A stretch of DNA of 64,000 nucleotides from Actinomycetota bacterium (GTDB taxonomy: Bacteria > Actinomycetota > UBA4738 > HRBIN12). This document shows, piece by piece, positions 4,854 through 56,612 of the stretch (its first letter is position 1; the number at the start of each line of letters is the position of its first letter). The notes under the pieces were generated by a model, which was given only the letters and a program-made list of their open reading frames with translations, ran no database searches and was not told the origin of the DNA. The DNA lies in contig DASWAT010000083.1 in the NCBI GenBank assembly GCA_036390995.1, forward strand, positions 3,052-67,051. Direction: 5' to 3'. The position numbers were made by a program, and so were the translations under genes.

Positions 4854-4865
4854 GCGGCCGGCGAC

Positions 4866-6404: not shown

Positions 6405-6405
6405 G

Positions 6406-9558: not shown

Positions 9559-9598
9559 GACTTCGGGCTCTACGGGGTGAGGCTCATCTGGTAAGGGG

Positions 9599-12105: not shown

Positions 12106-12106
12106 G

Positions 12107-12966: not shown

Positions 12967-13072
12967 CGTCGTTGCCCCAAAGACTAGCGCGCCGGTTGTG
13001 GGTCGTTCCGGCCGAAGCGGTGCGCGGCCGCGGGGAGTCTACTCCGGAACGGCGGGCATCGACCGGGGCGCG

Positions 13073-13705: not shown

Positions 13706-13715
13706 GGGCGGAACC

Positions 13716-15209
13716 CTAACGCGCCGCGTCGTGGTCCGTGAGCCGCACCGTCCACCATCCCCGAGGGTCGACGGCCTGCCGGACGCGCCAGGTCGGTTCG
13801 GGGCGCGGGAAGTCGGTCCGGAAGTGCCCGCCTCGGCTCTCGGTGCGGCGGAGCGCGGCGAGCGCGACCAGGCGGGCCACGAGGGTGGCGGCGCGGCTCC
13901 CGCCCTCCTCGGTCCCGCCGGCCGTCTCGAGCTTCGCGGCGAGCGCGGCCAGGTCCTCTCCGGTCCGGCGCACGCCGAGGAACCGGTCGCACAGGTCCCG
14001 GAGCTCGGGAAGCGGAAGGCCCCCGATCGGGTCGGCGCCCTCGACCGGTGTCTCGGGTCGTCCCTCCGGGAGCTCCCACGGCCCGTCCTCGGCCACGGCG
14101 GCCCGGCGTCCGAACACCAGCGCCTCCGCCAGTGAGTTGGAGGCCAGACGGTTCGCGCCGTGGACACCCGTGGCCGCCACCTCGCCGCAGGCGAACAGGC
14201 CCGGCACCGAGGTGCGCCCCCACGTGTCGGTGAGGGCGCCGCCGACGAAGTAGTGCGCGGCCGGCGCCACCGGCACGAGATCGCGGGCGATGTCCAGGCC
14301 GACCTGACGACACTGCTCGGCCGCAACGGGGAACCGTCGAGCCACGTCGGGGACCGCCCGGGCGTCGAGGAAGACGGGACCAACCGTCTCCTCCCGGACG
14401 TGCACCACCGCTCGGGCCACCACGTCCCGCGGCGCGAGATCGGCGAGCTCGTGGAAGCGGGACATGAAGGGCTCGCCCTTCCCATCGACGAGCACGGCGC
14501 CCTCGCCGCGCAGGGCCTCCGTCAGCAGCCGGGCCGGATGTCCCGGCACGTCGAGCGCCGTCGGATGGAACTGCACGAACTCGAGGTCGGCCAGCGCGGC
14601 GCCGGCGTCCCAGGCGAGCACGAGCCCGTCGCCCGTGGAGGTCTCCGGACCGGTCCGATGTCCGAAGATCCCACACGCCCCACCGGTGGCCAGGATCACC
14701 CGGTCTGCGGGAAGCTCCGACCCGTCCTCCATGACCACGCCGGTCGCGACGCCCTCGCCGGTCACGACCCGTCGGACCAACGCGTGGACCCGGTCGATCC
14801 GCCCGTCCCCTTCGACGCGGCCTGCGAGGAACCGGTGGAGCTCCCGCCCGGAGGCATCGCCCCCCGCGTGGAGCACGCGTCGCACGTGGTGGCCGCCCTC
14901 GAGCGCGGTCGCCCCCCGGTCGAAGGGCATGCCGAGGTCGAGGAGCTCCCCGACCGCCTCCGGCGCCTCGCGGGTGAGCACGCCGACCGCGCGTGGGTCG
15001 CACAGCTCGTGCCCCGCGGCCATGGTGTCGGCCGCGTGGAGCTCCGGCGAGTCGTCCGGCCCGGTCGCGGCGGCGATGCCCCCCTGGGCCCAGGCGGTGG
15101 CGCTGTCGAGCGCGGCCGCCGGCGCCACGATCGCGACCGGTCCGCGCTCGGCCGCGTGGAGGGCGCAGAACAGGCCCGCGGCACCCGCGCCGACCACCAC
15201 GGTTCGCAC
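13716..15209 (-). CDS. nadB: L-aspartate oxidase
   Basis: VVVGAGAAGL FAD fold, HYFVGG, HGANRLASNSL, RTESRGGHFRTDFP. 497 aa. Confidence 0.85.
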   Translation of the reverse strand: MRTVVVGAGAAGLFCALHAAERGPVAIVAPAAALDSATAWAQGGIAAATGPDDSPELHAADTMAAGHELCDPRAVGVLTREAPEAVGELLDLGMPFDRGATALEGGHHVRRVLHAGGDASGRELHRFLAGRVEGDGRIDRVHALVRRVVTGEGVATGVVMEDGSELPADRVILATGGACGIFGHRTGPETSTGDGLVLAWDAGAALADLEFVQFHPTALDVPGHPARLLTEALRGEGAVLVDGKGEPFMSRFHELADLAPRDVVARAVVHVREETVGPVFLDARAVPDVARRFPVAAEQCRQVGLDIARDLVPVAPAAHYFVGGALTDTWGRTSVPGLFACGEVAATGVHGANRLASNSLAEALVFGRRAAVAEDGPWELPEGRPETPVEGADPIGGLPLPELRDLCDRFLGVRRTGEDLAALAAKLETAGGTEEGGSRAATLVARLVALAALRRTESRGGHFRTDFPRPEPTWRVRQAVDPRGWWTVRLTDHDAAR

Positions 15210-22632: not shown

Positions 22633-23301
22633 TTGCCGCGGGGCGGCGCGCGCGGTAGCGTCCGAGCCGTGGCGTTCCCGCGGAGGCTGCTGGTCGACGG
22701 CGAGGAGCTGATCCTCGACCTCCGTCCCCATTGGATCGCCCTGGTGGGCCCCGTGTTCGTCACGCTGCTGGTGGTGGTGGGCTACATCCTCGCCCTGGTC
22801 TACGCGCCCGACTCGGGCGCCGCGCGCGCCACGGTGGTCTGGGGCGGGTTGGCCCTCGGCGTGCTGATCCTGCTGTGGTACCCCGTGCGCAAGGCGGTGG
22901 CGTGGGCGACGTCTCACTTCGTGGTGACGAGCGACCGCGTGATCCACCGGCAGGGGTGGATCGCGAAGTCGTCGATGGAGATCCCGCTGGAGGCCATCAA
23001 CGACGTCCGGTTCCACCAGGGCGTGTTCGAGCGGGTCATCGGGGCCGGGGACCTCATCATCGAGTCCGCGGGCGAGCGGGGCACGAACGCCTTCTCGGAC
23101 ATCCGTCATCCCGAAGATGTCCAGAAGACGATCTACCACCAGGGCGAGCTCAACCAGCAGCGGATGATGCGAGGCGCGGGGCCGGGACCGTCCGCGCCGT
23201 CCACCACGGGCGAGCTGGAGCGCCTGGTCGCCCTCCGCGACCGGGGCATCCTCACGCCCGAGGAGTTCGAGGCCCAGAAGCGGAAGATCCTCGGCAGCTA
23301 G
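22633..23301 (+). CDS. Membrane-anchored bacterial PH (bPH_2/YdbS-like) domain protein with C-terminal SHOCT motif
   Basis: Two TM helices, then the PH-like VTSDRVIHRQGWIAKSSMEIPLEAINDVRFHQG and a C-terminal LERLVALRDRGILTPEEFEAQKRKIL (SHOCT). Confidence 0.5.
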   Translation: MPRGGARGSVRAVAFPRRLLVDGEELILDLRPHWIALVGPVFVTLLVVVGYILALVYAPDSGAARATVVWGGLALGVLILLWYPVRKAVAWATSHFVVTSDRVIHRQGWIAKSSMEIPLEAINDVRFHQGVFERVIGAGDLIIESAGERGTNAFSDIRHPEDVQKTIYHQGELNQQRMMRGAGPGPSAPSTTGELERLVALRDRGILTPEEFEAQKRKILGS

Positions 23302-23375: not shown

Positions 23376-24545
23376 GTGGAACCGCGCGTCGCCGTGATCG
23401 GCATCGGACATTGCGGGTTCGCGCCCATCACGGCGGGGCTCTCCTACAAGGAGCTGATGTTCGAAGCGGCGCAGCGCGCCTATGACGACGCCGGCGTCGA
23501 TCCTCGGCAGGACATCGACTCGTTCGTCTGCTGCTCCGAGGACTTCTTGGAGGGCACGAGCATCTTCGACGAGTACGTGCCGGACCAGCTCGGTGCCGTC
23601 CGCCGGCCCGTGCAGACCGTGGCCGGCGACGGGCTGTTCGGGATCGCCACCGGGATGATGCTGATCCGCTCGGGCGTGGCCCGTGTCGTGGCGGTCGAGG
23701 CCCACAGCAAGGGCTCGGACGTGCGCACCCTCGGCGCGATCGAGCGGTTCGCGCTGGACCCGGTCTTCAACCGGCCGGTGCTGCCGTCGGTGCTGGCCGT
23801 CGCCGGCCTCGACATGAACGCGTTCCTCGAGCGGACCGGGCTGTCCGAGGAGCACTGCGCGATCGTTGCGGCGAAGAACCGCCGGAACGCGCTCGACAAC
23901 CCCCGGGCCGCGTACCCGGCCGACCTGGACGCGGAGGACGTGGACGACTCCGCGCCTGCGTACTGGCCGCTCCGCGAGCTCGAGATCGCCGCGCCGGCCG
24001 ACGGCTGTGTCGTGGCGGTCCTCGCCGTCGAAGAGCTCGCCCGTGAGCTGACCGAGGCGCCGGTGTGGATCCTCGGAGCGGGATGGTCGTCGGGGAGCCC
24101 GACGCTCGAGAGCCGGACCTGGGGCGAGGCCGACACCGTCCGCCGGGCCGCCGAGCGCGCCTACGCGATGGCGGGCATCGGGGACCCGGGCGAGGAGGTG
24201 GACCTGGCGGAGCTCGACGACACGTACGCGTACCGGGAGCTGCAGCACCTCGAGGCGCTCGGTCTGGCCACCGCGGAGGAGCTCCCGGGCTTGCTCGAGG
24301 AGGGCGAGCTGGAGCCCGACGGCGACCTGCCGGTGAACGTGTCCGGTGGGGCGCTCGGGCAGGGGAACCTGTTCGAGGGCAACGGCCTGGCCCGCCTGCA
24401 GGAATGCACGGAGCAGCTGCGAGGCGAGGCCGGTGAGCGGCAGGTGGACGAGGTCTACACGGCGGTCGCGCAGTCGTGGCCGGGCGTGCCGTCGACGTCG
24501 GCCGCGGTCGTCGTCCTCGCGAACGACGAGGGGGCGGGCGGGTGA
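23376..24545 (+). CDS. Thiolase-like protein (SCP-x / nonspecific lipid-transfer type)
   Basis: GTG at 23376 (VEPRVAVIGIGHCGF). Thiolase fold with CSEDF and GGALGQGN-type motifs. 389 aa. Confidence 0.7.
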   Translation: MEPRVAVIGIGHCGFAPITAGLSYKELMFEAAQRAYDDAGVDPRQDIDSFVCCSEDFLEGTSIFDEYVPDQLGAVRRPVQTVAGDGLFGIATGMMLIRSGVARVVAVEAHSKGSDVRTLGAIERFALDPVFNRPVLPSVLAVAGLDMNAFLERTGLSEEHCAIVAAKNRRNALDNPRAAYPADLDAEDVDDSAPAYWPLRELEIAAPADGCVVAVLAVEELARELTEAPVWILGAGWSSGSPTLESRTWGEADTVRRAAERAYAMAGIGDPGEEVDLAELDDTYAYRELQHLEALGLATAEELPGLLEEGELEPDGDLPVNVSGGALGQGNLFEGNGLARLQECTEQLRGEAGERQVDEVYTAVAQSWPGVPSTSAAVVVLANDEGAGG

Positions 24546-24898
24546 GCCTGGAGGCCTTGGACCACGTGTGGTTCTGGGTCGCCGACATGGACCGGGCCGT
24601 GGCCTTCTACACGGACGTGCTGGGTCTGCGGCTGGTTCGCCGCGACGGGGACGAGTGGGCGGAGTTCCAGGCCGGGGGGAGTCGGCTGGCGCTCCACGGG
24701 GCCGGCCCCGGATCCGTACCCGGCGGGACGGTGGTCTTCCGGGTGAACGATCTGACCGCGGCAAGGGCTGGTCTCGAGGCGCGCGGGGTCTCGTTCGATC
24801 ACGCGGGCGAGGTCGACCGCTACGCGAGCTACGCGACCTTCCGGGACCCGTTCGGCAACGGGCTGCAGCTGATCGAGTACGCGGAGGTGGCCCGCTGA
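24542..24898 (+). CDS. VOC/glyoxalase-family protein
   Basis: GTG 24542 overlaps the thiolase stop (GTGA). LDHVWFWVADMDRAVAFYTDVLGL...FRDPFGNGLQL, the glyoxalase/bleomycin-resistance fold. Confidence 0.6.
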   Translation: MSLEALDHVWFWVADMDRAVAFYTDVLGLRLVRRDGDEWAEFQAGGSRLALHGAGPGSVPGGTVVFRVNDLTAARAGLEARGVSFDHAGEVDRYASYATFRDPFGNGLQLIEYAEVAR

Positions 24899-26625
24899 TG
24901 GCGCGACGGGTCGCGGTGGTCGGGGCCGGCATGACCAGGTTCATGCGACGGGCCCAGGAGACCGGCAAGGAGCTCGCGTGGGAGGCGGCCCGCGCCGCGC
25001 TGGACTCGTGCGAGCTGTCGCTCCGCGACGTCGACGGCGTGTGCCTGACCTCGGGGCCGGACGCGTTCGACGGCGTGCACATGAAGGGCGAGTACCTGTC
25101 CGACGGGGCGGGGGCGTTCGGCAAGCCGTTCATCCGGACCTACGTGGGCGGCGGCAGCGGCGTGTTCACGGCGATCCAGGGGTGGTACTCGGTGGCCAGC
25201 GGGATGTTCGACGTGGCCCTGGTGGTGGCCGAGGAGAAGATGTCCTCGACCCAGCCCCACCCGCAGGGCGCGTTCCTCACGATCTTCGACAACGTCCTGG
25301 AGCGCCCGCTCGGCCCGAACCTCCTGTGGATCTTCGCGCTCGAGATGAACCGCTACATGACGGTGCACGGGCTCGACAAGCGCGACATCGCCGCCGTGGC
25401 CGTGAAGAACAAGCGCAACGCCGCCGACCATCCCGCGGCGTTGCTCGGCGACCGCGACATCACCGTCGACGACGTGCTGGCCTCCGAGACGCTCGCGTGG
25501 CCGGTGCAGCGCCTCGACGTGTCGCCGATCTCGGACGGAGCGGTGGCGCTCGTGGTGGCCTCGGAGGAGGCGGCCCGCCGGATCACCGACCGGCCGGTGT
25601 GGATCGACGGCGTCGGGTGGAACCTCGACACCGCGTACTGGACGAACCGCGATCTGGTCTTCCCCGAGTACGTCGCGAACGCCGCCCGCATGGCTTACGA
25701 GATGGCCGGCATCACCGAGCCGCGCAAACAGATCCACGTGGCGGAGCCCTACGACCCCTTCGACTACAAGGAGCTCCACCACCTCGAGGGTCTGCTGCTC
25801 TTCGACAGGGGCAAGGCGCCCGAGGCCGCTCGCGACGGCATCCTGGACCGCGACGGCGACCTTCCCAGCTGCCCGTCGGGGGGCCTGCTCGGGGTGGGCA
25901 ACCCGATCGCCGCGGCGGGCCTCATGAAGATCGCCGAGCTCTTCTGGCAGCTGCGCGGCGAAGCCGGCGCCCGCCAGGTCCCCGGCACTCCCGAGCGCGG
26001 TGTCGCGCAAGCCTGGGGCGATCTCATGCAGGTCGGAACCGTCGTCGTCATGGGTGCCGATGGTGCTCGCGGGGGCGGGGCGACACACCCGACGACCGGC
26101 GAGACGAAGCTGCCGGTGGTGCAGACGCCTCCGTACACGATGGGCGGGCATCCGCTGTCCGATGCGGAGTTCCGATCGGCCGTGGGGGCCGTGGACGACG
26201 CCGTGGACGCCCGGTACGCGTGGGACGCGGGTGTCGCGATCGGCCGGTTCCTCGACGGGCTCCGGGCCGGGAAGATCGTGGCACGCGTGTGCCATCGGTG
26301 CGAGAGGGTCCTCGTGCCGCCCCGGATGTTCTGCGAGCAGTGCTTCCGCGAGACCGACGGCTGGGCGGAGGTGGAGCCGACCGGGGTCGTCCAGACCTTC
26401 TCGATCTGCCACGTCTCGTGGGACATGCAGCGGCTGGAGGTCCCGGAGATGCCGGCCGTGATCGCGATCGACGGCTCGAGCGGCGGGTTCCTGCACAAGC
26501 TGGGCGAGGTGGAGCCCGGCGATCTCGCGGTGGGGATGGCCGTCGAGGCCGTGTGGAAGCCGGAGGCCGAGCGGACCGGCTCGATCCTCGACATCGCGTA
26601 CTTCCGGCCCCGGAGGGAGGCCTGA
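24898..26625 (+). CDS. Thiolase-like domain fused to C-terminal DUF35 (Zn-ribbon + OB-fold) domain
   Basis: ATG 24898 overlaps the VOC stop (ATGA). N-terminal thiolase fold (MARRVAVVGAGMTRF...), C-terminal DUF35 with CHRCERVLVPPRMFCEQC zinc ribbon. 575 aa. Confidence 0.7.
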   Translation: MARRVAVVGAGMTRFMRRAQETGKELAWEAARAALDSCELSLRDVDGVCLTSGPDAFDGVHMKGEYLSDGAGAFGKPFIRTYVGGGSGVFTAIQGWYSVASGMFDVALVVAEEKMSSTQPHPQGAFLTIFDNVLERPLGPNLLWIFALEMNRYMTVHGLDKRDIAAVAVKNKRNAADHPAALLGDRDITVDDVLASETLAWPVQRLDVSPISDGAVALVVASEEAARRITDRPVWIDGVGWNLDTAYWTNRDLVFPEYVANAARMAYEMAGITEPRKQIHVAEPYDPFDYKELHHLEGLLLFDRGKAPEAARDGILDRDGDLPSCPSGGLLGVGNPIAAAGLMKIAELFWQLRGEAGARQVPGTPERGVAQAWGDLMQVGTVVVMGADGARGGGATHPTTGETKLPVVQTPPYTMGGHPLSDAEFRSAVGAVDDAVDARYAWDAGVAIGRFLDGLRAGKIVARVCHRCERVLVPPRMFCEQCFRETDGWAEVEPTGVVQTFSICHVSWDMQRLEVPEMPAVIAIDGSSGGFLHKLGEVEPGDLAVGMAVEAVWKPEAERTGSILDIAYFRPRREA

Positions 26626-27161: not shown

Positions 27162-30100
27162 ATGAGCCAGGTCAGGTGCGAGCGCTGCGGCGAGCCGCTC
27201 CAGGCGACCGCCCGGTTCTGCCCGAACTGCGGGTTCCCCACCACGGCGCCCCCACCGGAGGAGCGCAAGGTCGTGACCGTCGTGTTCACCGACCTGGTGG
27301 GCTCCACGCAGCTGTCCGCCAGGATCGATCCCGAGGCCTACCGGGAGGTCATCGCCGGCTACTACCAGGCCGTGACCGAGGAGCTCGAGTCGCTCCGGGG
27401 ACGCGCGTACAACTTCGCCGGCGACGCCGTGGTCGGCGTGTTCGGATTGCCGCAGGCCCACGACGACGACGCCCTGCGGGCGATCAGAGCCGGCCTGGCC
27501 GTGGTGGACCGTGTGGAGCGTCTCGGGCGGTCGTTCGGCCTGCCGACGCCTCTCCGCTGCCGGGTCGGCGTGAACACGGGCCCCGTGGCCGTCGGGTCCG
27601 AAGGGGCCGAGCAGGGACTGCTCTTCGGCGCCGCCGTGAACGCGGCGGCGCGCCTGCAACAGGCCGCCGAGCCGGGCACGGTCCTCGTGGGCCAGACCAC
27701 CCGGATGATCACCGAGGACCGGGTGGAGTTCGGACCGGATCTGCTCATCGAGGCGAAGGGCTTCGAGGATCCGCTTCCCGCGTGGCCGGTGGTTGCCCTG
27801 GCCCCCCGCTCGTCGCGCCGGACCATCCCGTTCGTCGACCGCCGACGCGAGCTGCGGCTGCTCCACGACACGTTCGAGCGCGCCGTGGAGGCACGGCGCG
27901 CGCACATGGTGACGTTGTTCGGCGAGCCCGGGATCGGGAAGAGCCGGGTGATCGACGAGTTCGTGGCCACGCTCCCCGAGGGGACGAAGGTGCTCACCGG
28001 CAGGGCGAGCCCGTTCGAGGAGGACGTCACGTTCTCGCCGGTCGGGCAGATGCTGCTCCAGGAGCTCGGGGAGCCCCCCGACGCGCCGAAGCAGGAGCTG
28101 CAGCTACGCCTCGAGGAGGTCGTCGTCTCGTGCTGCTCGCCCGACCGCTCGCAGGAGATCGTCGCGCGGCTGGGTCACGCGCTCGGGCTGGTCGACGAAC
28201 CGCGGGAGGAGCGCCGGTCCCGCGTGGCCGAGATCCGGGCGGGCCTGCTCGCGTTCCTCGAGGGCCTCGCGGCTCAAGGGCCGGTGGTCCTCGTGTTCGA
28301 GGACCTTCACCTGGCCGAGCCGCAGCTCCTCGACCTGGTGGAGGAGACCGTCCGCGAGGCTCGGGGCGTGCCGCTGTTCGTCCTGTGCGCCGCCCGGTAC
28401 GACCTCCTGGACGAGCGCCCGGCGTGGGGCGGTGGCCTCGGCGACTCGCTGAACCTGTACCTGGAGTCGATGTCGCTGGAGGATGCCACCGAGCTGGCGC
28501 TGGAGGCGGGGGAGGGTCTGGATCCGCGCACGGCCGAGCGGATCGCCCGGCACGCCGGGGGGAACCCGTTCTTCATCGTAGAGACCACGGGGATGTTCCT
28601 GCACCTGGGGGCGGAGCTGCCCTCCGACACGGGACCGATGCCGCAGGCGCTGTTGCCTCCGACCGTGCAGGCCGTGATCGCGTCTCGGATCGACCACCTG
28701 CCCGCCGACGCGCGCGACCTCATCCGCAAGGCGTCGGTCTTCGCGCGCTCGAGGTTCGACCTCTCCGAGCTCCAGCTGATCGCCGATCCGAACGAGAAGG
28801 TGCTCGCCCTGTTGGAGGACGAGGAGCTCCTCGTCCCCGATCCCGAGCGCCCGGGCGTGTGGCGGTTCCGGCACGGGATGGTCCGCGACGTGGCCTACGA
28901 GAGCCTGCCCAAGCGCGAGCGCCAGCGGCTGCACCTGCTGGTCGCGGATCGGCTCTCCCGGGACCCCTCGACGGCGGCCCGCTACCCACGATCGATCGCT
29001 TACCACCTGGAGCAGGCCGCCCGCGCCTCGCTGGACCTGAACCCCTCGGACCGGTCGCTGGCCGATCGAGCCGTGGAGGCGCTCGCGCACGCAGGCCATC
29101 TGGCGCTCGACGGGTCGGAGCCGCGACCCGCCGCCGACCTGTTCGAGCGGGCCATCGCCCTGGCGGGGCCCGGGTCCGGATGGGGAGGCCGGGAGGCCGA
29201 CGTGCTGGCCCACCTCGGCGAGGCCCGCTACTGGCTGGGCGAGTTCGAGGCCGCCGTCCCGCCGCTCGGCCGCGCGCTCGAGCTGGCCCCGGGTGACCTG
29301 CCGATCCAGGCGCACGCGACCCGGTTCCTCGGCGACATCGAGCTGTCGATCCGCGGCAACCGCGAGCGGGCCGAGGAGCTGTTCGACCGCGCGCTGGCCT
29401 CGGCGCGCGAGCTCGGCGATCCCCGCACCCTGGCCCGGACGCTGCTGACCGCGGCCTGGGCGCCGTACTGGCGGGACGACCTGGACGCGACCAGAGCGAT
29501 GTTCGAGGAGGCGCTGCGAGTGGCCCGGGCCACCCGCGGCGGGGATCCGTGGGCGGAGGCCCGGGCCCTGAGCTCGCTGGCCGCCGTGGTCTCGGAGGTC
29601 GGCGACGAGGACGAGGCATTCGCGCTCGCATCGGAGTCGCTGGCCATCGCGGAGGCCAAGGGGGATCGGTTCGCGATGGCGGTGGCGCGCCAGGAGGTGG
29701 GGGACGCGCTCCGGCACATGTGGAGGCTGGCCGACGCCCTGCCGCACCTCGACAGGTCGGTCGACGCGTTCCGCGAGCTCGGCGCCCGGTGGGAGCTCGC
29801 CAGCGCGCTCACGTCGCGGGGCGTCCTGCACCGGCACGCCGGGCGGATCGACCAGGCGGTCCGGGACCTCCGGGAGGCCTACCGCCTCTGCCGCGAGCTG
29901 AGGGAGCGGAGCATCCTCACGTGGACGGCGCGCTCGCTGGCCGTGGCCCTGGTGATGGCGGAGGACCTGCCCGGGGCCAGAGCCTTGATCGAGGAGACGG
30001 CCACCGTGGCCCAGCCCGAGGGTCCGGGTGCCAGCGAGTGGCTCACCGACGCCGAGATCGTCCTCCTGCTCGCGGGGGGCGACGAGGCGGGGGCCCGGGA

Positions 30101-30299
30101 CCGGGCGATGGAGCTGCTCGCGATCGAGCGCGACCGCGGCCGGGAGAAGGAGATCGCGGGCAGGGTGTGGCTCGTCGGCCGGGTGTTCGGCCCCGACCTG
30201 GTCGGTGGCCAGGATGAGCTCGAACGCGCCCACAAGGTGCTGGCGTCGCTGCACGCCGAGGAGATCCTGCGCGAGCCCGACCTGATCCGGAGGAGGTGA
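27162..30299 (+). CDS. Zinc-ribbon / class III adenylate-guanylate cyclase / STAND (NB-ARC-like AAA) NTPase / TPR multidomain protein
   Basis: N-terminal CERCGEPLQATARFCPNCG double zinc ribbon. Cyclase domain (VVTVVFTDLVGST...FAGDAVVGVFG...GVNTGPV), Walker A GEPGIGKS, Walker B VLVFEDLHLAE, and a long Ala/Leu/Arg-rich TPR-like C-terminus. 1045 aa. Confidence 0.8.
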   Translation: MSQVRCERCGEPLQATARFCPNCGFPTTAPPPEERKVVTVVFTDLVGSTQLSARIDPEAYREVIAGYYQAVTEELESLRGRAYNFAGDAVVGVFGLPQAHDDDALRAIRAGLAVVDRVERLGRSFGLPTPLRCRVGVNTGPVAVGSEGAEQGLLFGAAVNAAARLQQAAEPGTVLVGQTTRMITEDRVEFGPDLLIEAKGFEDPLPAWPVVALAPRSSRRTIPFVDRRRELRLLHDTFERAVEARRAHMVTLFGEPGIGKSRVIDEFVATLPEGTKVLTGRASPFEEDVTFSPVGQMLLQELGEPPDAPKQELQLRLEEVVVSCCSPDRSQEIVARLGHALGLVDEPREERRSRVAEIRAGLLAFLEGLAAQGPVVLVFEDLHLAEPQLLDLVEETVREARGVPLFVLCAARYDLLDERPAWGGGLGDSLNLYLESMSLEDATELALEAGEGLDPRTAERIARHAGGNPFFIVETTGMFLHLGAELPSDTGPMPQALLPPTVQAVIASRIDHLPADARDLIRKASVFARSRFDLSELQLIADPNEKVLALLEDEELLVPDPERPGVWRFRHGMVRDVAYESLPKRERQRLHLLVADRLSRDPSTAARYPRSIAYHLEQAARASLDLNPSDRSLADRAVEALAHAGHLALDGSEPRPAADLFERAIALAGPGSGWGGREADVLAHLGEARYWLGEFEAAVPPLGRALELAPGDLPIQAHATRFLGDIELSIRGNRERAEELFDRALASARELGDPRTLARTLLTAAWAPYWRDDLDATRAMFEEALRVARATRGGDPWAEARALSSLAAVVSEVGDEDEAFALASESLAIAEAKGDRFAMAVARQEVGDALRHMWRLADALPHLDRSVDAFRELGARWELASALTSRGVLHRHAGRIDQAVRDLREAYRLCRELRERSILTWTARSLAVALVMAEDLPGARALIEETATVAQPEGPGASEWLTDAEIVLLLAGGDEAGARDRAMELLAIERDRGREKEIAGRVWLVGRVFGPDLVGGQDELERAHKVLASLHAEEILREPDLIRRR

Positions 30300-30303: not shown

Positions 30304-31455
30304 GTGGACTTCGACCTCACGGAGGAGCAGCGTGAGTTCCGCGACGCGGTCCGGGAGTTCGCCGAGGAGGTCGTGGCGCCGCGGATCGCAGAGTTCGATC
30401 GGCGCGAGGAGTTCCCCCTCGAGATCGTGGTGCGCATGGGCGAGCTCGGGCTGTTCGGATTGCCCTTCCCCGAGCGCTACGGCGGGCTCGACGGCGACTT
30501 CCTGACCTTCTGCCTCTGCCTGGAAGAGCTGGCCCGCGTCGACTCCTCGGTGGCCGTCACGCTCGAGGCAGCGGTGGGTCTGGGGGCGAACCCGATCTAC
30601 CGGTTCGGGACCGAGGAGCAGAAGCAGCGGTGGCTCGTCCCGATGTGCCGGGGCCAGGTGCTGGGGGCGTTCGCCCTCACCGAGCCCGGGGGCGGCTCCG
30701 ACGCCCACGCGATCCGCACCACCGCGCGGCTCGAGGGCGACGAGTGGGTGATCGACGGCTCGAAAGCGTTCATCACGAACTCGGGGACGCCGCTGTCGAA
30801 GGTGTGCACGGTCGCGGCGATCACCGGCAACGGGGGCGAGGTCTCGGCGATCCTCGTGCCGACCGACACGCCGGGGCTCACCGTCGGTCCGTCGTACCGG
30901 AAGATCGGCTGGCACGCCAGCGACACGCACGAGCTCGCCTTCTCCGGGTGCCGGGTCCCTCGCGAGAACCTGCTGGGCGAGCAGGGACGCGGCTATGCGC
31001 AGCTCCTCGAGGCGCTCGACGACGGCCGCATCGCCACCGCGGCGATGTCCGTGGGTCTGGCCCGGGGGTGCTTGGAGGAGAGCGTGAAGTACGCGAAGGA
31101 ACGGGAGGCGTTCGGTCGCCCGATCGGCTCGTTCGAGGCCCTGCAGTTCAAGATGGCCGACATGAAGGTGGGGGTCGAGACGGCGCGCCTGGCCTACCTG
31201 AAGGCGGCGTGGCTGAAGGACCGCGGCCGTGCCTACAAGTCCGAGGCCGCGGTGGCCAAGCTGTACGCCAGCGAGATCGCGGTGACGTGCGCGCGCGAGG
31301 CCGTGCAGGTGCACGGTGGCTACGGGTACATCGAGGAGTTCCCCGTCGCGCGGTTCTACCGGGACGCGAAGATCCTCGAGATCGGCGAGGGCACCAGCGA
31401 GATCCAACGGCTCCTGATCGCGCGCGACCTGGGCCTTCCGGGCACCGAGCTGTAG
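30304..31455 (+). CDS. Acyl-CoA dehydrogenase
   Basis: GTG at 30304. MDFDLTEEQREFRDAV..., ALTEPGGGSD, the catalytic YGYIEEFP, and QGGYGY-type motifs. 383 aa. Confidence 0.85.
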   Translation: MDFDLTEEQREFRDAVREFAEEVVAPRIAEFDRREEFPLEIVVRMGELGLFGLPFPERYGGLDGDFLTFCLCLEELARVDSSVAVTLEAAVGLGANPIYRFGTEEQKQRWLVPMCRGQVLGAFALTEPGGGSDAHAIRTTARLEGDEWVIDGSKAFITNSGTPLSKVCTVAAITGNGGEVSAILVPTDTPGLTVGPSYRKIGWHASDTHELAFSGCRVPRENLLGEQGRGYAQLLEALDDGRIATAAMSVGLARGCLEESVKYAKEREAFGRPIGSFEALQFKMADMKVGVETARLAYLKAAWLKDRGRAYKSEAAVAKLYASEIAVTCAREAVQVHGGYGYIEEFPVARFYRDAKILEIGEGTSEIQRLLIARDLGLPGTEL

Positions 31456-31586: not shown

Positions 31587-32750
31587 ATGGCCCACAACCG
31601 AATCCGAACCGGCGGCGTCGTGCGCCGAGCCGCCGTCGTCCTCGCTGTGTTCGCGCTGCTGTCCGGGCTGACGGCCGGAGCCGGCGCAGATCCGAAGCAG
31701 GACCTGCAACAGGCGAAGTCGCGCCTGGCCCAGATCCGAACGGAGATCACGCAGCAGCAGGCCGTGTTGAGCAGGCTGTCCGCACAGGCCGCCGCGCTCG
31801 CGCAGCGGATCGACGAGGCGCAGGGCAAGTACGAGTACATCACGTCGCAGCTCCAGGACACGCGGGCCAAGCTCCTGGACGCCACCCAGCGGTTCCAGGC
31901 GGTCGAGGCCCAGTTGAACTCGCGCGCCCGCGAAACCTACATGCAGGGGCCGGCCAGCCCGCTCGAGTTCCTCCTCGGGGCCACGTCGTTCTCGGACCTG
32001 TCCGACCGGATGGAGTACGTGGGCGCGCTCACGCAGACCGACGCCGACCTGGCGAACCAGGTCCAGAACCTGCGGAACGAGCTCACCGCGCAGCAGCGCG
32101 ACCAGCAGCGCCTCCAGGCCAGGCAGGCGGAGCTGCTGAAGGGCCTGCAGGCCGACCAGGCGCAGCTCGACGCCCAGTTCTCACAGCAGAAGCAGGTCTA
32201 CGACGACATCAAGGCCAAGGAGGCCGAGGCCCAGCAGCTCGTCAGCAAGGCCACCCGCGAGTACCGGCAGTGGCTGAAGTCGCTCAGCGCGCCGGTGAAC
32301 ATCGCCGGCAACCCGCTCCACGTCTGCCCGGTGGACCAGCCGCGCGCCGTGTACGACGGGTTCGGGGCTCCGCGGTACGCCGGCGGGTACCATCCACACG
32401 CCGGCAACGACATCGTCGCGCCGGGGGGAACGCCGATCCGCGCGCCCTTCGACGGCACCGCGCGCGCTTCGTACAACGGCCTCGGCGGCAACGCGGTGTA
32501 CGTCTACGGCTCGGCCGGGTACGTCTACAACGCCCACCTCATGCAGCCCGGCTCCTCGGGCTCGGTCTCGGCCGGCCAGATCATCGGCTACGTCGGCAAC
32601 ACCGGCGACGCGCAGGGGGGCGTGACCCACGACCACTTCGAGTGGCATCCGAACGCGATCCCATCGAACTGGATAGCCAGCCCGTACGGATATTCGGTGA
32701 TCGGCACGGCCATCAACCCGTATCCCTACCTCGAGCAAGTGTGCCGGTAG
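31587..32750 (+). CDS. Secreted M23 family metallopeptidase with N-terminal coiled-coil
   Basis: Signal peptide (AAVVLAVFALLSGLTAGAGA), about 200 aa of Gln/Ala-rich coiled coil, then a LytM/M23 domain (HAGNDIVAPGGTPIRAPFDGT...GNTGDAQGGVTHDHFE). Confidence 0.75.
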   Translation: MAHNRIRTGGVVRRAAVVLAVFALLSGLTAGAGADPKQDLQQAKSRLAQIRTEITQQQAVLSRLSAQAAALAQRIDEAQGKYEYITSQLQDTRAKLLDATQRFQAVEAQLNSRARETYMQGPASPLEFLLGATSFSDLSDRMEYVGALTQTDADLANQVQNLRNELTAQQRDQQRLQARQAELLKGLQADQAQLDAQFSQQKQVYDDIKAKEAEAQQLVSKATREYRQWLKSLSAPVNIAGNPLHVCPVDQPRAVYDGFGAPRYAGGYHPHAGNDIVAPGGTPIRAPFDGTARASYNGLGGNAVYVYGSAGYVYNAHLMQPGSSGSVSAGQIIGYVGNTGDAQGGVTHDHFEWHPNAIPSNWIASPYGYSVIGTAINPYPYLEQVCR

Positions 32751-48366: not shown

Positions 48367-48410
48367 GGGCCGTCCCTCCCGAACGGCCAGTGCCGCGAAG
48401 GACGTGTACG

Positions 48411-48434
48411 CGCTCACGTCCCATGAACGCTCGG
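48411..48434 (-). promoter_or_regulatory. Conserved dyad element upstream of ECF sigma gene 1 (candidate autoregulated promoter/operator)
   Basis: + strand cgctcacgtcccatgaacgctcgg (sense strand CCGAGCGTTCATGGGACGTGAGCG), 45-68 nt upstream of ATG 48366. A near-identical element sits in the same position relative to the second sigma gene. Confidence 0.35.
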
Positions 48435-51948: not shown

Positions 51949-53190
51949 ATGGGCAAGGACCTGTACGAGATCGGCGAGATCCCGCCCGTCGGCGAGGTGC
52001 CGAAGCGGATGCACGCGCAGCTCGTCCGTCCCGACCGGTACGGCGAGCCGAAAGACGCGATCCGGGACGAGGTGATCGACGTTCCCGAGATCGGGCCGCA
52101 CGAGGCGCTCGTGATGGTCATGGCCGCAGGCGTGAACTTCAACAACGTGTGGGCCGCGCGCGGCGTGCCGGTCGACGTGACGAAGACGCAGGCCCGCTGG
52201 GGCGAGCCCACGGACTTCCACATCGTCGGCTCCGACGCCTCCGGGATCGTGTACGCGGTCGGCTCGGAGGTCACGAGCGTGAAGGTCGGCGACCGCGTGG
52301 TCGTGCACGCCGGGCAGTGGGATCTGGACGACCCGTGGGTGACGGGCGGCGGCGATCCCGGCCTCGCGGCGACCTTCCGCGTGTGGGGCTACGACTCGTG
52401 CTGGGGCTCGTTCGGCCAGTTCTGCAAGGTCCAGGCCCACCAGTGCCTGCCGAAGGCCGAGCACCTCACGTGGGAGGAAGCCGCCGCCCCCACGCTCACC
52501 GGAGCCACCGCGTACCGGATGCTCCACGGCTGGCCGCCGAACACCGTCAAGGAGGGGGACGTCGTCCTGGTGTGGGGGGCGTCCGGCGGCCTTGGCTCGC
52601 TGGCGGTCCAGCTCGTCACGCTGGCGGGGGCGAAGGCGGTCGGCGTGGTCTCGAGCACGGAAAAGGGCGAGTTCGCGACGTCCCTCGGGGCGGTGGGCTA
52701 CATCAACAGGAAGGACTTCGACCACTGGGGCGTTCCGCCGACGTGGGACTCGCCCGAGTGGAAGCAGTGGTTCGACGGCGCGAAAGCCTTCGGCAAGGCC
52801 ATCTGGGACGTGCTCGGCGAGCGGCGAAGCCCGAACATCGTGTTCGATCATCCCGGGCAGGACACGATCCCTACCTCGATCTTCGTGTGCGAGCGGGGCG
52901 GCATGGTCGTGATCTGCGCGGGGACGTCCGGGTACGACACGATGGTGGACGTCCGGTACCTCTGGTACCTGCAGAAGCGCTACCAGGGTTCGCACCTGTT
53001 CAACGACGAGCAGGCGGCCGCGTTCAACGACCTCGTGCGCGAGGGGAAGGTACAGCCCACGCTCGGCCACACCTACCGCTATGGCGAGAGCGGGGAGGTC
53101 CACCAGCTCATGGGCGGAGGCCGTCTCCCAGAGGGCAACGTCGCCGTCCTGATCAACGCGCCGGGGCCGGGCCTGAAGGACCTGCCCTAG
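51949..53190 (+). CDS. ccr: Crotonyl-CoA carboxylase/reductase family enoyl-CoA reductase
   Basis: Collinear similarity to Ccr: VPEIGPHEALVMVMAAGVNFNNVW, HIVGSDASGIVY, TWEEAAAPTLTGATAYRML, VLVWGASGGLGS, VVSSTEKGE, IVFDHPGQDT, AGTSGY...VRYLWYLQKRYQGSH. Confidence 0.7.
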   Translation: MGKDLYEIGEIPPVGEVPKRMHAQLVRPDRYGEPKDAIRDEVIDVPEIGPHEALVMVMAAGVNFNNVWAARGVPVDVTKTQARWGEPTDFHIVGSDASGIVYAVGSEVTSVKVGDRVVVHAGQWDLDDPWVTGGGDPGLAATFRVWGYDSCWGSFGQFCKVQAHQCLPKAEHLTWEEAAAPTLTGATAYRMLHGWPPNTVKEGDVVLVWGASGGLGSLAVQLVTLAGAKAVGVVSSTEKGEFATSLGAVGYINRKDFDHWGVPPTWDSPEWKQWFDGAKAFGKAIWDVLGERRSPNIVFDHPGQDTIPTSIFVCERGGMVVICAGTSGYDTMVDVRYLWYLQKRYQGSHLFNDEQAAAFNDLVREGKVQPTLGHTYRYGESGEVHQLMGGGRLPEGNVAVLINAPGPGLKDLP

Positions 53191-56100
53191 CCGGCGGACG
53201 CCTCGTCCACCTCGAAGAGGAACGCCCGCGCGCCGCAATCGACGAGGATCTCGCGGGCGCGTTCGAAGACGGGGGAGGGGTCCTCGCCCGTACGGGACAT
53301 CGCACGGCCGAGATCGACCATCGCCCGCGCGGCATCGATCCGTAGTCCGAGTTCTTCGAGGGCCGTGGCGCCGTCGGCGAGCAGCCTTCGCGCCTCGACA
53401 GGATCGTCGGCGAGGAGCCCCTCCATCAGGAGCGCGTTGGCACGCGCGGCCGGCGAGCGGCCGTGCTCGGACAGATCATGGTACGCCTCCGCCTCGTTTC
53501 GCCGTCCGGCGCGGATGAACGACCGAGCGAGGTCCGTGAACGCCTCCGGGATGTAGTCGACGTTGAAACCTCGCACGTCCGCGACGAACCCCACGAAGCA
53601 CGCGGCCGCCTCGTCGTTCGCGCCCCGCACGAGCGCGAGGAGGCCCTTAACGAGAGGGATCAACACGTCACTCTGCGGCTCGGGGTTCGCGTGGAGGAAC
53701 GGGAGCGATCCGAGATGCGCGGCCTCCGCCTCGTCGAGGTGCCCCGCGAACAGCAGCGCCATGGCGAGTCCCGTCAGGCGCATCCCGCGGAGCGGCTCGT
53801 CACCGACCTGAACGGCGAGGTCGATCGCCTCGCGCTGGAGGGCTTCCGCTTCGGCGACCCGACCGAGCCGGAGCACGACGTCGCCGAGGCTCCCGACGAG
53901 CCATCCGACGTGCCCGAGGGCGCCCGCGCGTCTGGCGACCTCGAGTCCCTCGCGGAGCACCTCCTCGGCCCGCCGACCGTCCGACGCGAAGTCGGCGAGG
54001 ACCGACGCAAGGTTGTTGTAGCAGCGCATCAGGTTCGAGAACTCCCCGACCTCCTTGGCCAGGCGGTACGCCTCCTCGAGCGTCTCGACGGCCTCTGCCG
54101 AGCGGCCCGTCTGCGAGATACACACGCCGAGCGTCTGCGTCGCTTCCGCGTGGACGAGCGGAGCGTCGACGCGCCGAGCCATCTCGACGGCGCGGCGCAG
54201 CAACGGCTCCGCCTCATCGGTCCGGCCCCGACGCCACAGGAACCACCCGAGGCGGTGGAGCGCGTCGGCGAGCTCGACCCGCTCCCCGAGTGGCTCGAGC
54301 GTCGCAACGGCGCCCCGTCCCGCGTCCTCGGCTTCCTCGTGCCGCGCGAGCGTCAGCAGCGGCAGCACGGCCTGTGCGCGCGCCCAGCCGATCCCCACCG
54401 GATCGCCGATCTCCTCATACGCGGCCAGGGCTTGCCCGAGGACCCGGACGCCCTCCTCGATCGGGTCGGTGCCCCACGAGGCGTCCGCGTGCGCTCGGGC
54501 GAGCTCGGCCCGGTCTCGGGCGGGGAGGCCGAGCGCGTCGGCCAGGTGCTCCGCCTCTCGGAACCATCTGGTCGCTTCTGCCCGCTGCCAGAGCGCCGCG
54601 GTCCGTTCCCCCGCCGCCTTCGTCCATCGGAAGGCGAGCCGTCGCAGCTCGGTCCGTCGCCCGCCGGTCTCGCCGAGCTCGTCGAGGTACCGGAGCGCCT
54701 CGAGCAGGTGGCTCGCGATGAGCTCGGCGATCTCCTCGGCGCGGTCGCCCGCGCGCCGCTCGGCCCACCGGGCTACGCCCGCGTGCTTCTCGGCGCGGAG
54801 CGCCTTCGGCAGCGAGTCGTACGAGCCGTCGCGGATCAGGTTGTGGCGGAACGAGAACTCGTGCTCATCGGAGAACGACGAGGGCTCGTGCGGTACCACG
54901 AGCTCCTTCACGCGCAACCGTCCGAGCGCGTCCCGCACCTGACCCATCTCCCGGCCCGTGAGCTCGCCGACGGCGCCGACCCAGAAGACCCTGCCGACGA
55001 CGGCCGCGTCCTGCAGGATGGTCTTCTCGTCGTCGGGGAGTCCGTCCAGCCGCGCGGCGATGAGCCCTTGGACCGAGCGAGGGAGCTCGACGTCCTCGAC
55101 CGGACGCGCGACCTCCCACCGGGAGGCCTCGGTCGCGCGGAGCACGCCGTCGTCGATCAGCTTGCGGACGATCTCCTCCACGTAGAGCGGGTTGCCCTCG
55201 CTCCGCTCGACGATCGTTCGCTTCAGGTCGGGCGCGATCTGCCCCGGGAGCAGGTCGTCCAGCATCGCCTCGCCCTCGGCCTCCGAGAGCGGATCCAGGT
55301 AGATCGAGGCCGCGTTCCGCTTCCCGCCACCCCACGTCGGCCGCGTCTCGAACAGCTCGGCGCGCGCGGTGGCGACCATCATGATCGGTCCCTGCGCCCA
55401 ATCGGCGACGTGATCGACGAAGTCCAGGAGCCCCTCGTCGGCCCAGTGGAGGTCGTCGAGGACCACCACGAGCGGGTAACGAGCGGCCAACCGCTCGAGG
55501 AACCGGCGCCAGGTCTCGAACAGCTCCTCGCGGCTCATCGAGCGCGGCTCCCCGGCGCCCACGAGCACGCGGATCTGTGGCGCGACGCTTTCGTCGCCGA
55601 ACAGCTCGCGGACCGCGGCGTCCGCCTTCTTCCCGGCGACCTCCGCGAGGTCGTCGTCGAAGATCTCGCATTGCGCCTTGATCGCGTCGGCGAAGGCCGA
55701 GTACGACGTGTTGCCGTACGCGAGGCATCGACCGCGGCGCCAGTACATCGTCTGCGGCAGTCCCTCCACGTAGCGCTCGAGCTCGGCGACCAGGCGCGAC
55801 TTCCCGACGCCCGCCGGCCCCACGATCGTGACGAGCGCGGGTCGCCCCTCGGCCTCCACCCGCCGGAGCGTCTGCTTGAGGACGGCGAGCTCCTCGTCCC
55901 GCCCCACCAGCCGGGCCTCCAGACCCAGACGCGGTCGCTCGCCTCGAACGCGCGCCTTGATGCGGAGGGCCCGCCACGCCGGCACGGGCTCGGCCTTGCC
56001 CTTCAGCGTCAGCGGCTCGAGCTCCCGGTACTCGATCACGTCCTTGGTGCTCGCGTAGACGCCCGGTCCGACGACGATGTGGCCCGGCTCCGCCGCGGTC

Positions 56101-56612
56101 TGCAACCGCGCCGCCGTGTTGACCGCGTCGCCGGTGAGCATCCGGTCTCGAGGGCCCGCCGCCCGCTCGAGGTCCACGAGCACCTCGCCGGCTTCGATGC
56201 CGATCCGCATCGCGAGCGCCGGCTTCCCCTCCGCCTCGAACCCCCGGTTCAGCTCGGAGAGCACCGCCAGCATCTCGATGGCTGCCCGGACGGCGTGCTC
56301 GGCGTCGTCCTCGTGCGCCCGAGGGACGCCGAAGATCGCCAGGACGGCGTCGCCCATGAACTTCTCGAGCAGGCCCTCGTACCGCTCGATCTCCTGGGAC
56401 AGACGATCGAAGGCCCGTCCCACCACCGATTGCACAACCTCGGGGTCCTCCTGCTCGGCCAGGGAGGTGGACCCGACGAGGTCCGCGAACAGCGCCGTGG
56501 CGAACTTGCGCTCCTTGCGTCTCGGCTCCGGCTGCACGAGCGCCGTTGCGCACTCGTTGCAGAACTTCGCCCCATCGGGGTTGTGCGCTCCGCACACGGG
56601 GCAGGTCAGCAT
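53187..56612 (-). CDS. Second zinc-ribbon / adenylate-guanylate cyclase / STAND NTPase / TPR multidomain protein
   Basis: MLTCPVCGAHNPDGAKFCNECA zinc ribbon. Cyclase domain (FATALFADLVGST...FMGDAVLAIFG...RIGIEAGEV), Walker A GPAGVGKS, Walker B VVVLDDLHWAD, and a TPR-like C-terminus. 1141 aa, the same architecture as 27162-30299. Confidence 0.8.
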   Translation of the reverse strand: MLTCPVCGAHNPDGAKFCNECATALVQPEPRRKERKFATALFADLVGSTSLAEQEDPEVVQSVVGRAFDRLSQEIERYEGLLEKFMGDAVLAIFGVPRAHEDDAEHAVRAAIEMLAVLSELNRGFEAEGKPALAMRIGIEAGEVLVDLERAAGPRDRMLTGDAVNTAARLQTAAEPGHIVVGPGVYASTKDVIEYRELEPLTLKGKAEPVPAWRALRIKARVRGERPRLGLEARLVGRDEELAVLKQTLRRVEAEGRPALVTIVGPAGVGKSRLVAELERYVEGLPQTMYWRRGRCLAYGNTSYSAFADAIKAQCEIFDDDLAEVAGKKADAAVRELFGDESVAPQIRVLVGAGEPRSMSREELFETWRRFLERLAARYPLVVVLDDLHWADEGLLDFVDHVADWAQGPIMMVATARAELFETRPTWGGGKRNAASIYLDPLSEAEGEAMLDDLLPGQIAPDLKRTIVERSEGNPLYVEEIVRKLIDDGVLRATEASRWEVARPVEDVELPRSVQGLIAARLDGLPDDEKTILQDAAVVGRVFWVGAVGELTGREMGQVRDALGRLRVKELVVPHEPSSFSDEHEFSFRHNLIRDGSYDSLPKALRAEKHAGVARWAERRAGDRAEEIAELIASHLLEALRYLDELGETGGRRTELRRLAFRWTKAAGERTAALWQRAEATRWFREAEHLADALGLPARDRAELARAHADASWGTDPIEEGVRVLGQALAAYEEIGDPVGIGWARAQAVLPLLTLARHEEAEDAGRGAVATLEPLGERVELADALHRLGWFLWRRGRTDEAEPLLRRAVEMARRVDAPLVHAEATQTLGVCISQTGRSAEAVETLEEAYRLAKEVGEFSNLMRCYNNLASVLADFASDGRRAEEVLREGLEVARRAGALGHVGWLVGSLGDVVLRLGRVAEAEALQREAIDLAVQVGDEPLRGMRLTGLAMALLFAGHLDEAEAAHLGSLPFLHANPEPQSDVLIPLVKGLLALVRGANDEAAACFVGFVADVRGFNVDYIPEAFTDLARSFIRAGRRNEAEAYHDLSEHGRSPAARANALLMEGLLADDPVEARRLLADGATALEELGLRIDAARAMVDLGRAMSRTGEDPSPVFERAREILVDCGARAFLFEVDEASAG

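Follow-up and report, generated by a model that had tools for sequence, protein, structure and literature searches.

Two paralogous zinc-ribbon class III cyclases with a predicted MalT-type STAND switch in an actinomycetotal chromosome

Introduction

Mycobacterium tuberculosis encodes three proteins, Rv0386, Rv1358 and Rv2488c, in which a class III nucleotidyl cyclase is followed by a MalT-type ATPase, tetratricopeptide (TPR) repeats and a LuxR helix-turn-helix (HTH) domain, an arrangement known as 'LAL'-type. Rv0386, whose pair of substrate-contacting residues is the unusual Gln-Asn, is an active cyclase; it synthesizes cAMP and, as a side activity, cGMP, and is required for the cAMP burst in infected macrophages. 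Here we analyze two giant open reading frames (ORFs) of related design, A and B, carried on a stretch of 64,000 nucleotides from an Actinomycetota bacterium (GenBank assembly GCA_036390995.1, contig DASWAT010000083.1, positions 3,052 to 67,051), which we call the window. A and B each combine a zinc ribbon, a class III cyclase, a MalT-type STAND NTPase and a TPR sensor. They are probably paralogues that diverged long ago within a very large family of soluble class III cyclases.

As published descriptions present it, the Rv0386 type resembles A and B in its N-terminal cyclase, its MalT/LAL ATPase with a Walker A motif and its TPR repeats. It is likewise actinobacterial, present as several paralogues per genome and equipped with a non-canonical substrate pair. 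A and B differ in having no C-terminal LuxR/GerE HTH, in possessing an N-terminal four-cysteine zinc ribbon, and in the pair itself, which is Asn/Leu in A and Lys/Met in B. Two STAND proteins of solved structure provide models for the switch. Escherichia coli MalT (8BOB for the nucleotide-binding oligomerization domain, NOD; 1HZ4 for the sensor) has in common with A and B the matches to the Pfam family TPR_MalT and, presumably, an activation pathway. However, the MalT effector is a C-terminal LuxR DNA-binding domain with no N-terminal counterpart, whereas the effector of A and B is an N-terminal enzyme, and sequence identity is about 16-18%. In Pyrococcus horikoshii PH0952 (6MFV), as in A and B, an N-terminal effector is followed by NOD, arm and TPR sensor; the protein is the structural basis for the double-autoinhibition model, but it is archaeal and its effector is an ArsR-like DNA-binding domain. 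MalT and PH0952 both rest in an ADP-bound, closed and doubly autoinhibited state, from which inducer converts them to an ATP-bound open multimer (PMC6468293).

Other described proteins share individual parts of this layout. The class IIIb cyclases CyaB of Pseudomonas aeruginosa (3R5G), CyaC of Spirulina (1WC0/1WC1) and Cya2 of Synechocystis (2W01) carry the same Asp/Asp/Asn/Arg residues at equal spacing, but they have a Lys-Thr (adenylate cyclase) or Glu-Gly (Cya2) base pair and other regulatory modules. Streptomyces AfsR, which consists of SARP, NB-ARC and TPR modules, aligns with the family over the TPR arm (E = 2e-15), and relatives with a SARP module reach 49% identity to B; AfsR has no cyclase, however, and neither A nor B has a SARP module. 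The TOMM kinase/cyclase fusion TIGR03903 aligns over the cyclase and the NTPase (E = 2e-64), and a kinase-cyclase-AAA_16 relative of A and B exists. Although TIGR03903 is the best NCBIfam match, we rejected this equivalog identity, since the score is 218 bits against a cut-off of 706 and A and B have no kinase.

Results

ORF A (1045 residues) occupies positions 27162..30299 of the forward strand, and ORF B (1141 residues) positions 53187..56612 of the reverse strand, 22.9 kb away. They lie exactly where an initial annotation of the window, made from the sequence alone, had placed two paralogous giants about 23 kb apart on opposite strands. G+C content at third codon positions is 0.94 in A and 0.91 in B, and at second positions about 0.48 in both, in a window of 71% G+C. 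This pattern is typical of high-GC genes, and we therefore consider both ORFs to be real genes. B is, moreover, identical to an NCBI protein from a metagenome-assembled genome (MAG; P0121, named 'AAA family ATPase'), and each ORF has more than 100 full-length orthologue clusters (64-83% identity for A, 66-82% for B). A collinear alignment of A with B spans 989 residues at 30% identity (E = 2e-75), which bears out their proposed paralogy. A translated search found no third copy in the window.

Pfam scans identify four identical modules in identical order in A (all on the forward strand) and B (all on the reverse strand). The four-cysteine zinc ribbon, CxxC-x10-CxxC, spans residues 6-23 of A (CERC-x10-CPNC; 27177..27230) and 4-21 of B (CPVC-x10-CNEC; 56550..56603), with Zn_Ribbon_1 matches at residues 6-26 (E = 2e-6) and 4-25, respectively. 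The cyclase domain follows at residues 34-210 of A (27261..27791) and 34-218 of B (55959..56513). Guanylate_cyc (PF00211), whose curated cut-off is 21.9 bits, matches well above that level at residues 34-185 of A (65.7 bits, E = 5e-18) and 38-208 of B (67.9 bits, E = 1e-18). The NOD, made up of nucleotide-binding, helical and winged-helix domains, covers residues 222-600 of A (27825..28961) and 234-602 of B (54807..55913), and contains AAA_16 matches at residues 224-407 (64.7 bits, E = 2e-17) and 234-404 (90.2 bits, E = 3e-25). The remainder, residues 601-1045 of A (28962..30296) and 603-1141 of B (53190..54806), forms an arm and TPR sensor in which TPR_12 (E = 3e-23 in A), TPR_10 and TPR_MalT repeats reach the C terminus. 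No HTH family was matched by either protein, even at E up to 0.1. The description of both proteins as a double-Cys zinc ribbon, cyclase, P-loop NTPase and long TPR region with no HTH thus agrees with Pfam, and the AAA_16, TPR and cyclase families that the initial annotation had proposed searching for were all found. Conservation of the ribbon differs between the two groups: its four cysteines are kept in 115 of 120 B-type orthologue clusters and in 95 of 120 A-type clusters, being absent or unrecognizable in the other 25.

We mapped the classical six cyclase positions by alignment to CyaB (3R5G) and Cya2 (2W01). The metal-binding aspartates are D44 and D88 in both proteins, and the transition-state residues are Asn160 and Arg164 in A and N165 and R169 in B. 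All four are invariant in orthologue clusters of the A type (119/119) and the B type (~120/120). The wider family, sampled by 122 representatives, has them in at least 118. The residue spacings (44, 4, 7 and 4) equal those of Spirulina CyaC, in which we take the corresponding positions to be D1017, K1057, D1061, T1139, N1146 and R1150. With above-threshold profile matches and a class III fold, A and B belong to the class III nucleotidyl cyclases, and both look catalytically competent as judged from these residues. Degenerate catalytic residues, which the initial annotation had named as a reason to abandon its proposal, were found in neither copy. The best sequence matches of the cyclase domain are the class IIIb enzymes CyaB, CyaC and Cya2 (E = 2e-20 with a single sequence, 1e-43 to 1e-47 with a family profile). 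In sequence and structure comparisons alike, the best matches are adenylate cyclases and one guanylate cyclase of class IIIb, whereas the pyrimidine cyclase 8jsf scores far lower (27.8 bits, versus 75.5 bits for CyaB).

The base-contacting pocket departs from the canonical adenine pair of Lys with Asp or Thr. A has Asn84 and Leu153, and B has Lys84 and Met158, retaining only the lysine, a residue that contacts adenine N1 in characterized adenylate cyclases. These choices are stable within each group. Lys84 is present in 120 of 120 B-type orthologue clusters and Met158 in 119; among 119 A-type clusters, Leu153 is universal and position 84 is Asn in 112 and Asp in 7. Across 122 members of the family the pair is Lys-Met in 43, Lys-Leu in 30, Lys-Phe in 15 and Lys-Ile in 14, while A is Asn-Leu. 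The lysine is kept in 115 of the 122, and about 103 combine it with one of these hydrophobic residues (Met, Leu, Phe or Ile). The Asn/Leu pair of A appears to be a derived variant of this family pocket.

The NOD of each protein contains five motifs to which we assigned roles from their position and from the established STAND literature. In A these are Walker A (254-261), Walker B (375-383), sensor-1 (R412), GNP (467-469) and FRH (569-571). In B they are Walker A (GPAGVGKS, 265-272), Walker B (LVVVLDDLH, 381-389), sensor-1 (R417, in ATAR), GNP (473-475) and FRH (588-590); the histidine lies in the predicted winged-helix region. All five motif columns are invariant when 25 B-type and 15 A-type sequences are aligned (A1) and mostly at least 90% conserved in a second alignment (A2). 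The threshold of the NB-ARC family PF00931 was not reached: B scored 16.6 bits against 23.5 (E = 0.005), and A gave no match. We therefore set aside an AP-ATPase-clade (NB-ARC) identity for the NTPase, whose AAA_16 domain is of the MalT type and places it in the MalT clade of STAND proteins. Its earlier description as 'NB-ARC-like' stands for the P-loop STAND superfamily and fails at the level of the family. The broader proposal of a sensor-NTPase-effector protein of STAND logic with a cyclic-nucleotide-producing effector fits the invariant NOD motifs and the intact catalytic residues.

Structure prediction agrees with this assignment. The AlphaFold2 model of B has a mean predicted local distance difference test score (pLDDT) of 83.9 and a predicted TM-score of 0.68. 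Its pLDDT falls below 50 only at linkers 27-32 and 220-232 and at a cyclase loop (149-158). The low-confidence inter-domain linkers indicate that flexible tethers connect the switch with the zinc ribbon and the cyclase. Foldseek returned PH0952, a STAND protein with a TPR sensor, as the best match of the model (E = 1e-13 over 756 columns). The NOD fold matches solved STAND proteins and is followed by an arm and repeat sensor, as in that group, and the family profile matches the MalT sensor 1HZ4 (E = 7e-14) as well as the AfsR TPR region.

A search of 1.84 billion cluster representatives with the part of B that comprises zinc ribbon, cyclase and NOD (residues 1-640) yielded 169,280 matches at E of 1e-3 or below and 20,123 at 1e-30 or below, the latter number referring to clusters at 50% identity. 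The top 150 matches are collinear with the query over its full length and mostly 1050-1190 residues long. In a domain census of 42 diverse representatives (31-49% identity to B), AAA_16 was present in all 42, Guanylate_cyc in 41, Zn_Ribbon_1 in 35 and TPR_12 in 30; LuxR HTH (GerE) was not among the 25 families listed for them. Four relatives carry an N-terminal SARP DNA-binding module, one carries a Ser/Thr kinase and one a C-terminal domain that binds cyclic nucleoside monophosphates (cNMPs), beyond the TPR arm. P0244 and P0387 exemplify the SARP-cyclase-AAA_16-TPR form and P0308 is Pkinase-cyclase-AAA_16. P0335 is cyclase-AAA_16-TPR-cNMP_binding, and its terminal domain (residues 1183-1268) could provide product feedback. 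We know of no earlier description of SARP fused directly to a cyclase-STAND protein. SARP or kinase takes the place of the zinc ribbon in these relatives (33-49% identity to B), and from this we speculate that the ribbon may be a targeting or interaction module. JGI names family members 'class 3 adenylate cyclase / tetratricopeptide (TPR) repeat protein', and NCBI 'AAA family ATPase'. To judge from these sequence counts, few cyclase architectures are more common in Actinomycetota.

The window is core chromosome. Its genes of central metabolism include those for methylenetetrahydrofolate reductase, citrate synthase, isocitrate/isopropylmalate dehydrogenases, fumarase, succinate dehydrogenase, NadA, an FAD flavoprotein (NadB/SdhA-type), methylmalonyl-CoA mutase, and a biotin carboxylase with its carboxyltransferase. 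Thiolase-like proteins, acyl-CoA and 3-hydroxyacyl-CoA dehydrogenases and a Ccr-like reductase represent acyl-CoA metabolism, and a glyoxalase/epimerase-like protein, a two-component system, two ECF sigma factors and FtsH are also encoded. These Pfam assignments match the metabolic neighborhood described in the initial annotation.

The position of A on this chromosome is fixed. We scanned species-representative genomes for relatives of A, obtaining 342, and surveyed the best 80 of these loci (50-86% identity), nearly all from uncultured Actinomycetota MAGs. The constant frame over the 80 loci consists of a biotin carboxylase gene on the opposite strand, a bPH/SHOCT gene, A itself and an M23 peptidase gene. 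In the window, the upstream anchor is the bPH/SHOCT gene at 22633..23301 (forward strand; found at this position in many of the 80 loci) and the downstream anchor a PcsB-like M23 peptidase gene at 31587..32750 (forward strand; in most loci with enough flanking sequence). At least 75 of the 80 loci share a gene of this frame; of the five that do not, two have short flanks. Given this shared frame at 50-86% identity, A is a core gene of its lineage, inherited vertically and at a fixed position. The genes immediately beside A are less constant. An acyl-CoA dehydrogenase gene (30304..31455, forward strand) begins 4 nt 3' of A in the window. This gene and a thiolase/OB-fold module are present in the clade of at least 62% identity and in some loci near 50%, and are absent from the clade of 53-57% identity, where A sits directly between the bPH/SHOCT and M23 peptidase genes. 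The peptidase gene thus follows A even where the dehydrogenase is missing. Three loci (L001, L002 and L008) had suggested a fixed thiolase/OB-fold/A/acyl-CoA dehydrogenase operon; we discarded this idea, since thiolase and dehydrogenase come and go over the 80 loci. In seven loci (L023, L026, L028, L029, L034, L036 and L047) an insert of about 2 kb separates A from the dehydrogenase gene, which abuts it elsewhere; the ORF listing of L026 shows overlapping long ORFs on both strands of this insert. In L067, another paralogue lies about 4 kb downstream of the A orthologue. L042 (JBHGAT010000083.1), labelled 'Candidatus Velamenicoccus archaeovorus', has an 86%-identical A orthologue and the bPH/SHOCT, thiolase and OB-fold synteny of the Actinomycetota MAGs; this contig is most likely mis-binned.

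A conserved context for B was ruled out by four orthologues with differing neighbors, and nothing about B can be inferred from context when four orthologues lie in four different ones. In the window, the stop codon of B overlaps by 4 nt (53187-53190) that of a convergent Ccr-like zinc-dehydrogenase gene (51925-53190, forward strand), which leaves no space for an intergenic terminator between the pair. In L004 (positions 1-10423), a B-type orthologue (67% identity) belongs to a run of three cyclase-AAA_16-TPR genes beside a phosphoenolpyruvate carboxylase gene; two are adjacent on one strand and the third is divergent, a local expansion of paralogues. In L005, the gene for a YajQ-family nucleotide-binding protein (10414-10911) is convergent with a B orthologue (78% identity) and overlaps its 3' end; we did not see this in the other loci. 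The core and the TPR arm diverge at different rates. Orthologues of A are 68-73% identical in the core and 57-70% in the arm, and those of B 85-88% and 55-66%. The arm is essentially indel-free (gap fraction at most 0.005). Such a pattern resembles that of a repeat scaffold under relaxed constraint, and the gradient in B is compatible with some diversification of the sensor.

The initial annotation had likened A and B to Avs antiviral proteins. In PADLOC scans, neither matched an Avs or other STAND defence model; the matches were to PycC (through the cyclase domain) and a generic TPR model, and weakly to SngB and PDC-S27 (E > 0.005). The PycC matches, up to E = 1e-19, are no better than generic PF00211 (68.6 versus 67.9 bits), and PycC structures are more distant from the cyclase of A and B than adenylate and guanylate cyclase structures are. 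The ten flanking genes gave only weak, superfamily-level PADLOC matches, and we saw no integrase, transposase or defence system among the window genes. Nor does a gene for a cNMP-activated effector adjoin A or B, so that the effector pairing of Pycsar (PycTM or PycTIR) was not found. Avs systems, by comparison, are marked by defence-island or mobile context and by patchy horizontal spread, neither of which we observed for A and B.

Two further observations concern possible defence or phage sequences. A divergent pair 1.3 kb from the 3' end of B encodes a DUF2087 protein (50348-50833, reverse strand), whose counterpart in L002 also has HTH_20, and a PD-(D/E)XK nuclease-superfamily protein (50809-51855, forward strand). 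Their weak PADLOC matches, of the nuclease-superfamily protein to DruK (37 bits) and of the DUF2087 protein to Csa3, are probably generic, and the pair forms no recognizable defence system. Among 2.9 million IMG/VR viral contigs we found 14 distant relatives (about 30% identity), several of them beside genuine phage genes. L099 has its match at 5001-7229 and a terminase gene at 10191-12122 (large subunit, E = 2e-168), L094 a serine integrase gene at 9941-11116 (E = 4e-90), L090 primase/helicase (33-2219) and RuvC-like (3091-3642) genes, and L091 three such relatives as tandem ORFs (4986-13992). These relatives are either phage cargo or host DNA flanking a prophage.

Elsewhere in the window, a thiolase/ChsH2-OB fusion ORF (24346-26625) and the FtsH-like ORF (57523-59454), both on the forward strand, have long Arg/Gly-rich or atypical N-terminal extensions that probably lie upstream of the true start codons. 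The AAA match of the FtsH-like protein is split by an insertion (residues 187-370 against a profile of 131 positions). The two ECF-type sigma factor genes (47869-48417 and 49685-50236, both on the reverse strand) are 1.3 kb apart and encode paralogues of 61% identity (E = 2e-68); anti-sigma factors may be encoded in between.

Discussion

We propose, with a probability of about 0.75, that A and B are ligand-gated class III cyclases built on a MalT-clade STAND switch. At rest, each protein would be a closed, ADP-bound monomer autoinhibited by contacts of the arm and sensor with the nucleotide-binding domain. An endogenous ligand, either a small molecule or a partner protein, would bind the TPR sensor and release this lock, allowing ADP to be exchanged for ATP and the NOD to oligomerize. 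The tethered cyclase domains, which would be active only as dimers with shared active sites, would thereby be brought together. The product would be a 3',5'-cyclic nucleotide, most probably cAMP, with less certainty for A, which has no adenine-contacting lysine, and the signal would be read by receivers encoded elsewhere in the genome. We infer the order of these steps by analogy to MalT and PH0952, and activation by dimerization from general class III enzymology. Catalytic sites of class III enzymes form at the dimer interface, so bringing tethered domains together would be a natural on-switch.

Several observations weigh against this proposal. To our knowledge, no HTH-less member of the subfamily has been studied biochemically, and ligand, oligomerization, product and receivers are all inferred. 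No receiver is apparent locally: Pfam scans found no cNMP_binding domain among the roughly 40 window genes, and tblastn found no CRP homologue in the window, a weak test made with E. coli CRP as the query. The second base-contact residue is hydrophobic in about 103 of 122 members and A has no lysine, which makes cAMP as the product a guess. Even the lysine of B is compatible with UTP, as the uridylate cyclase AnPycC keeps a lysine at the corresponding position of its F/K/F pocket. Given this enzyme, and Rv0386 with its activity from an unusual pair, the product is not readable from sequence. The TPR arm evolves faster than the core, above all in B, and the neighbors of B differ in all four orthologues examined (67-80% identity), none of them being defence-like; a diversifying sensor could look alike. 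Finally, a few of the distant relatives are on genuine phage-like contigs.

A variant of this proposal concerns the product. Rather than cAMP, the enzymes could make cGMP, cCMP, cUMP or a mixture, as set by the Lys-plus-hydrophobic or Asn-plus-Leu pocket. The canonical pairs of adenylate (Lys with Asp or Thr) and guanylate (Glu with Cys or Ser) cyclases are both absent, and Rv0386 and AnPycC illustrate, respectively, adenylate plus guanylate cyclase activity from Gln-Asn and the use of a non-canonical pocket. However, the adenine-contacting lysine is retained in 115 of 122 members, the closest matches are adenylate cyclases and one class IIIb guanylate cyclase, and pyrimidine cyclases score much lower. 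We regard a product other than cAMP as possible but unlikely. We are somewhat more doubtful that A is a dedicated regulator of the adjoining acyl-CoA genes, sensing a pathway intermediate and reporting it as cAMP. MalT-type sensors do bind metabolites, A is tightly packed with genes of the same strand (gaps of 48 nt and 4 nt, the latter to the acyl-CoA dehydrogenase gene), and the gene order is identical in L001, L002, L008 and most loci of at least 62% identity. Against such a role, the thiolase/OB-fold and dehydrogenase genes are variable inserts that the 53-57% clade does not have, seven loci have about 2 kb inserted before the dehydrogenase gene, and the constant neighbors of A are not acyl-CoA enzymes.

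An immune function was suggested in the initial annotation, and our data do not support it. In an Avs-like scenario, the TPR arm would recognize a phage protein, oligomerization would activate the cyclase, and the cNMP would trigger an abortive-infection effector. The tripartite logic of effector, NTPase and repeat sensor is indeed common to Avs (AVAST) proteins and to A and B, and Pycsar has in common with them the class III cyclase fold and a cyclic mononucleotide signal. Published catalogues of bacterial NACHT STANDs and other conflict systems also include cNMP cyclase effector domains; our literature search for a review of cyclase effectors on MalT/AfsR-type STANDs found nothing specific. 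The PycC matches, the fast-evolving arm and variable context of B, the tandem arrays of paralogues and the relatives on phage-like contigs could all be read the same way. Yet PADLOC finds no Avs or other STAND defence model, PycC scores only as well as the generic cyclase family, and A and B have neither an adjoining cNMP-activated effector nor a defence island, their flanks being metabolic. A keeps its position and descends vertically in at least 75 of 80 genomes, the arm is essentially free of indels, and the nearest solved STAND protein, MalT, is a metabolite-sensing regulator. We therefore find an Avs-like role very improbable. The same low standing applies to a broader proposal, in which the unusual pockets serve a nucleotide other than cAMP and chromosomal STAND cyclases, akin to the copies on phage-like contigs, act in conflict or surveillance as the MalT-clade equivalent of Avs, signalling by cNMP to receivers in trans. 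Under that proposal B would be the better candidate, because of its faster-diverging arm and variable context, and A might be a domesticated housekeeping descendant. Slightly less probable again is a cyclase-homology domain that is not an enzyme at all and serves as a nucleotide-binding or dimerization module, with output through protein contacts or through binding of nucleic acid or RNA polymerase by the zinc ribbon, as in a cryptic transcription factor. The non-canonical pocket, the SARP module at the position of the ribbon in relatives and the catalytically dead cyclase domains described in some conflict systems would suit this alternative. Without catalysis, however, it would be hard to account for four catalytic residues that are invariant in about 240 orthologues and present in at least 118 of 122 family representatives, and the ribbon is a 20-residue element with no demonstrated DNA-binding role here, missing or unrecognizable in 25 of 120 A-type clusters. 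All told, A and B look like housekeeping signal-transduction proteins, not immune sensors.

We return to the reading of A and B as ligand-gated cyclases and to what it means for the family. The two proteins are further members of a known, already catalogued and abundant group, and the direct payoff of this locus is modest: the questions of ligand, product and receiver are real, but they are not specific to A and B. The case also shows that the combination of STAND, TPR and an enzymatic effector is, by itself, no evidence of antiviral function. The HTH-less zinc-ribbon-cyclase-STAND-TPR protein is the dominant form of a family of more than 20,000 clusters at 50% identity, which places it among the largest unexplored groups of bacterial second-messenger generators. 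Its characteristic non-canonical pocket makes the identity of the product an easily tested question, and A, as a single-copy, positionally fixed orthologue across an uncultured Actinomycetota lineage, provides a clean target for biochemistry.

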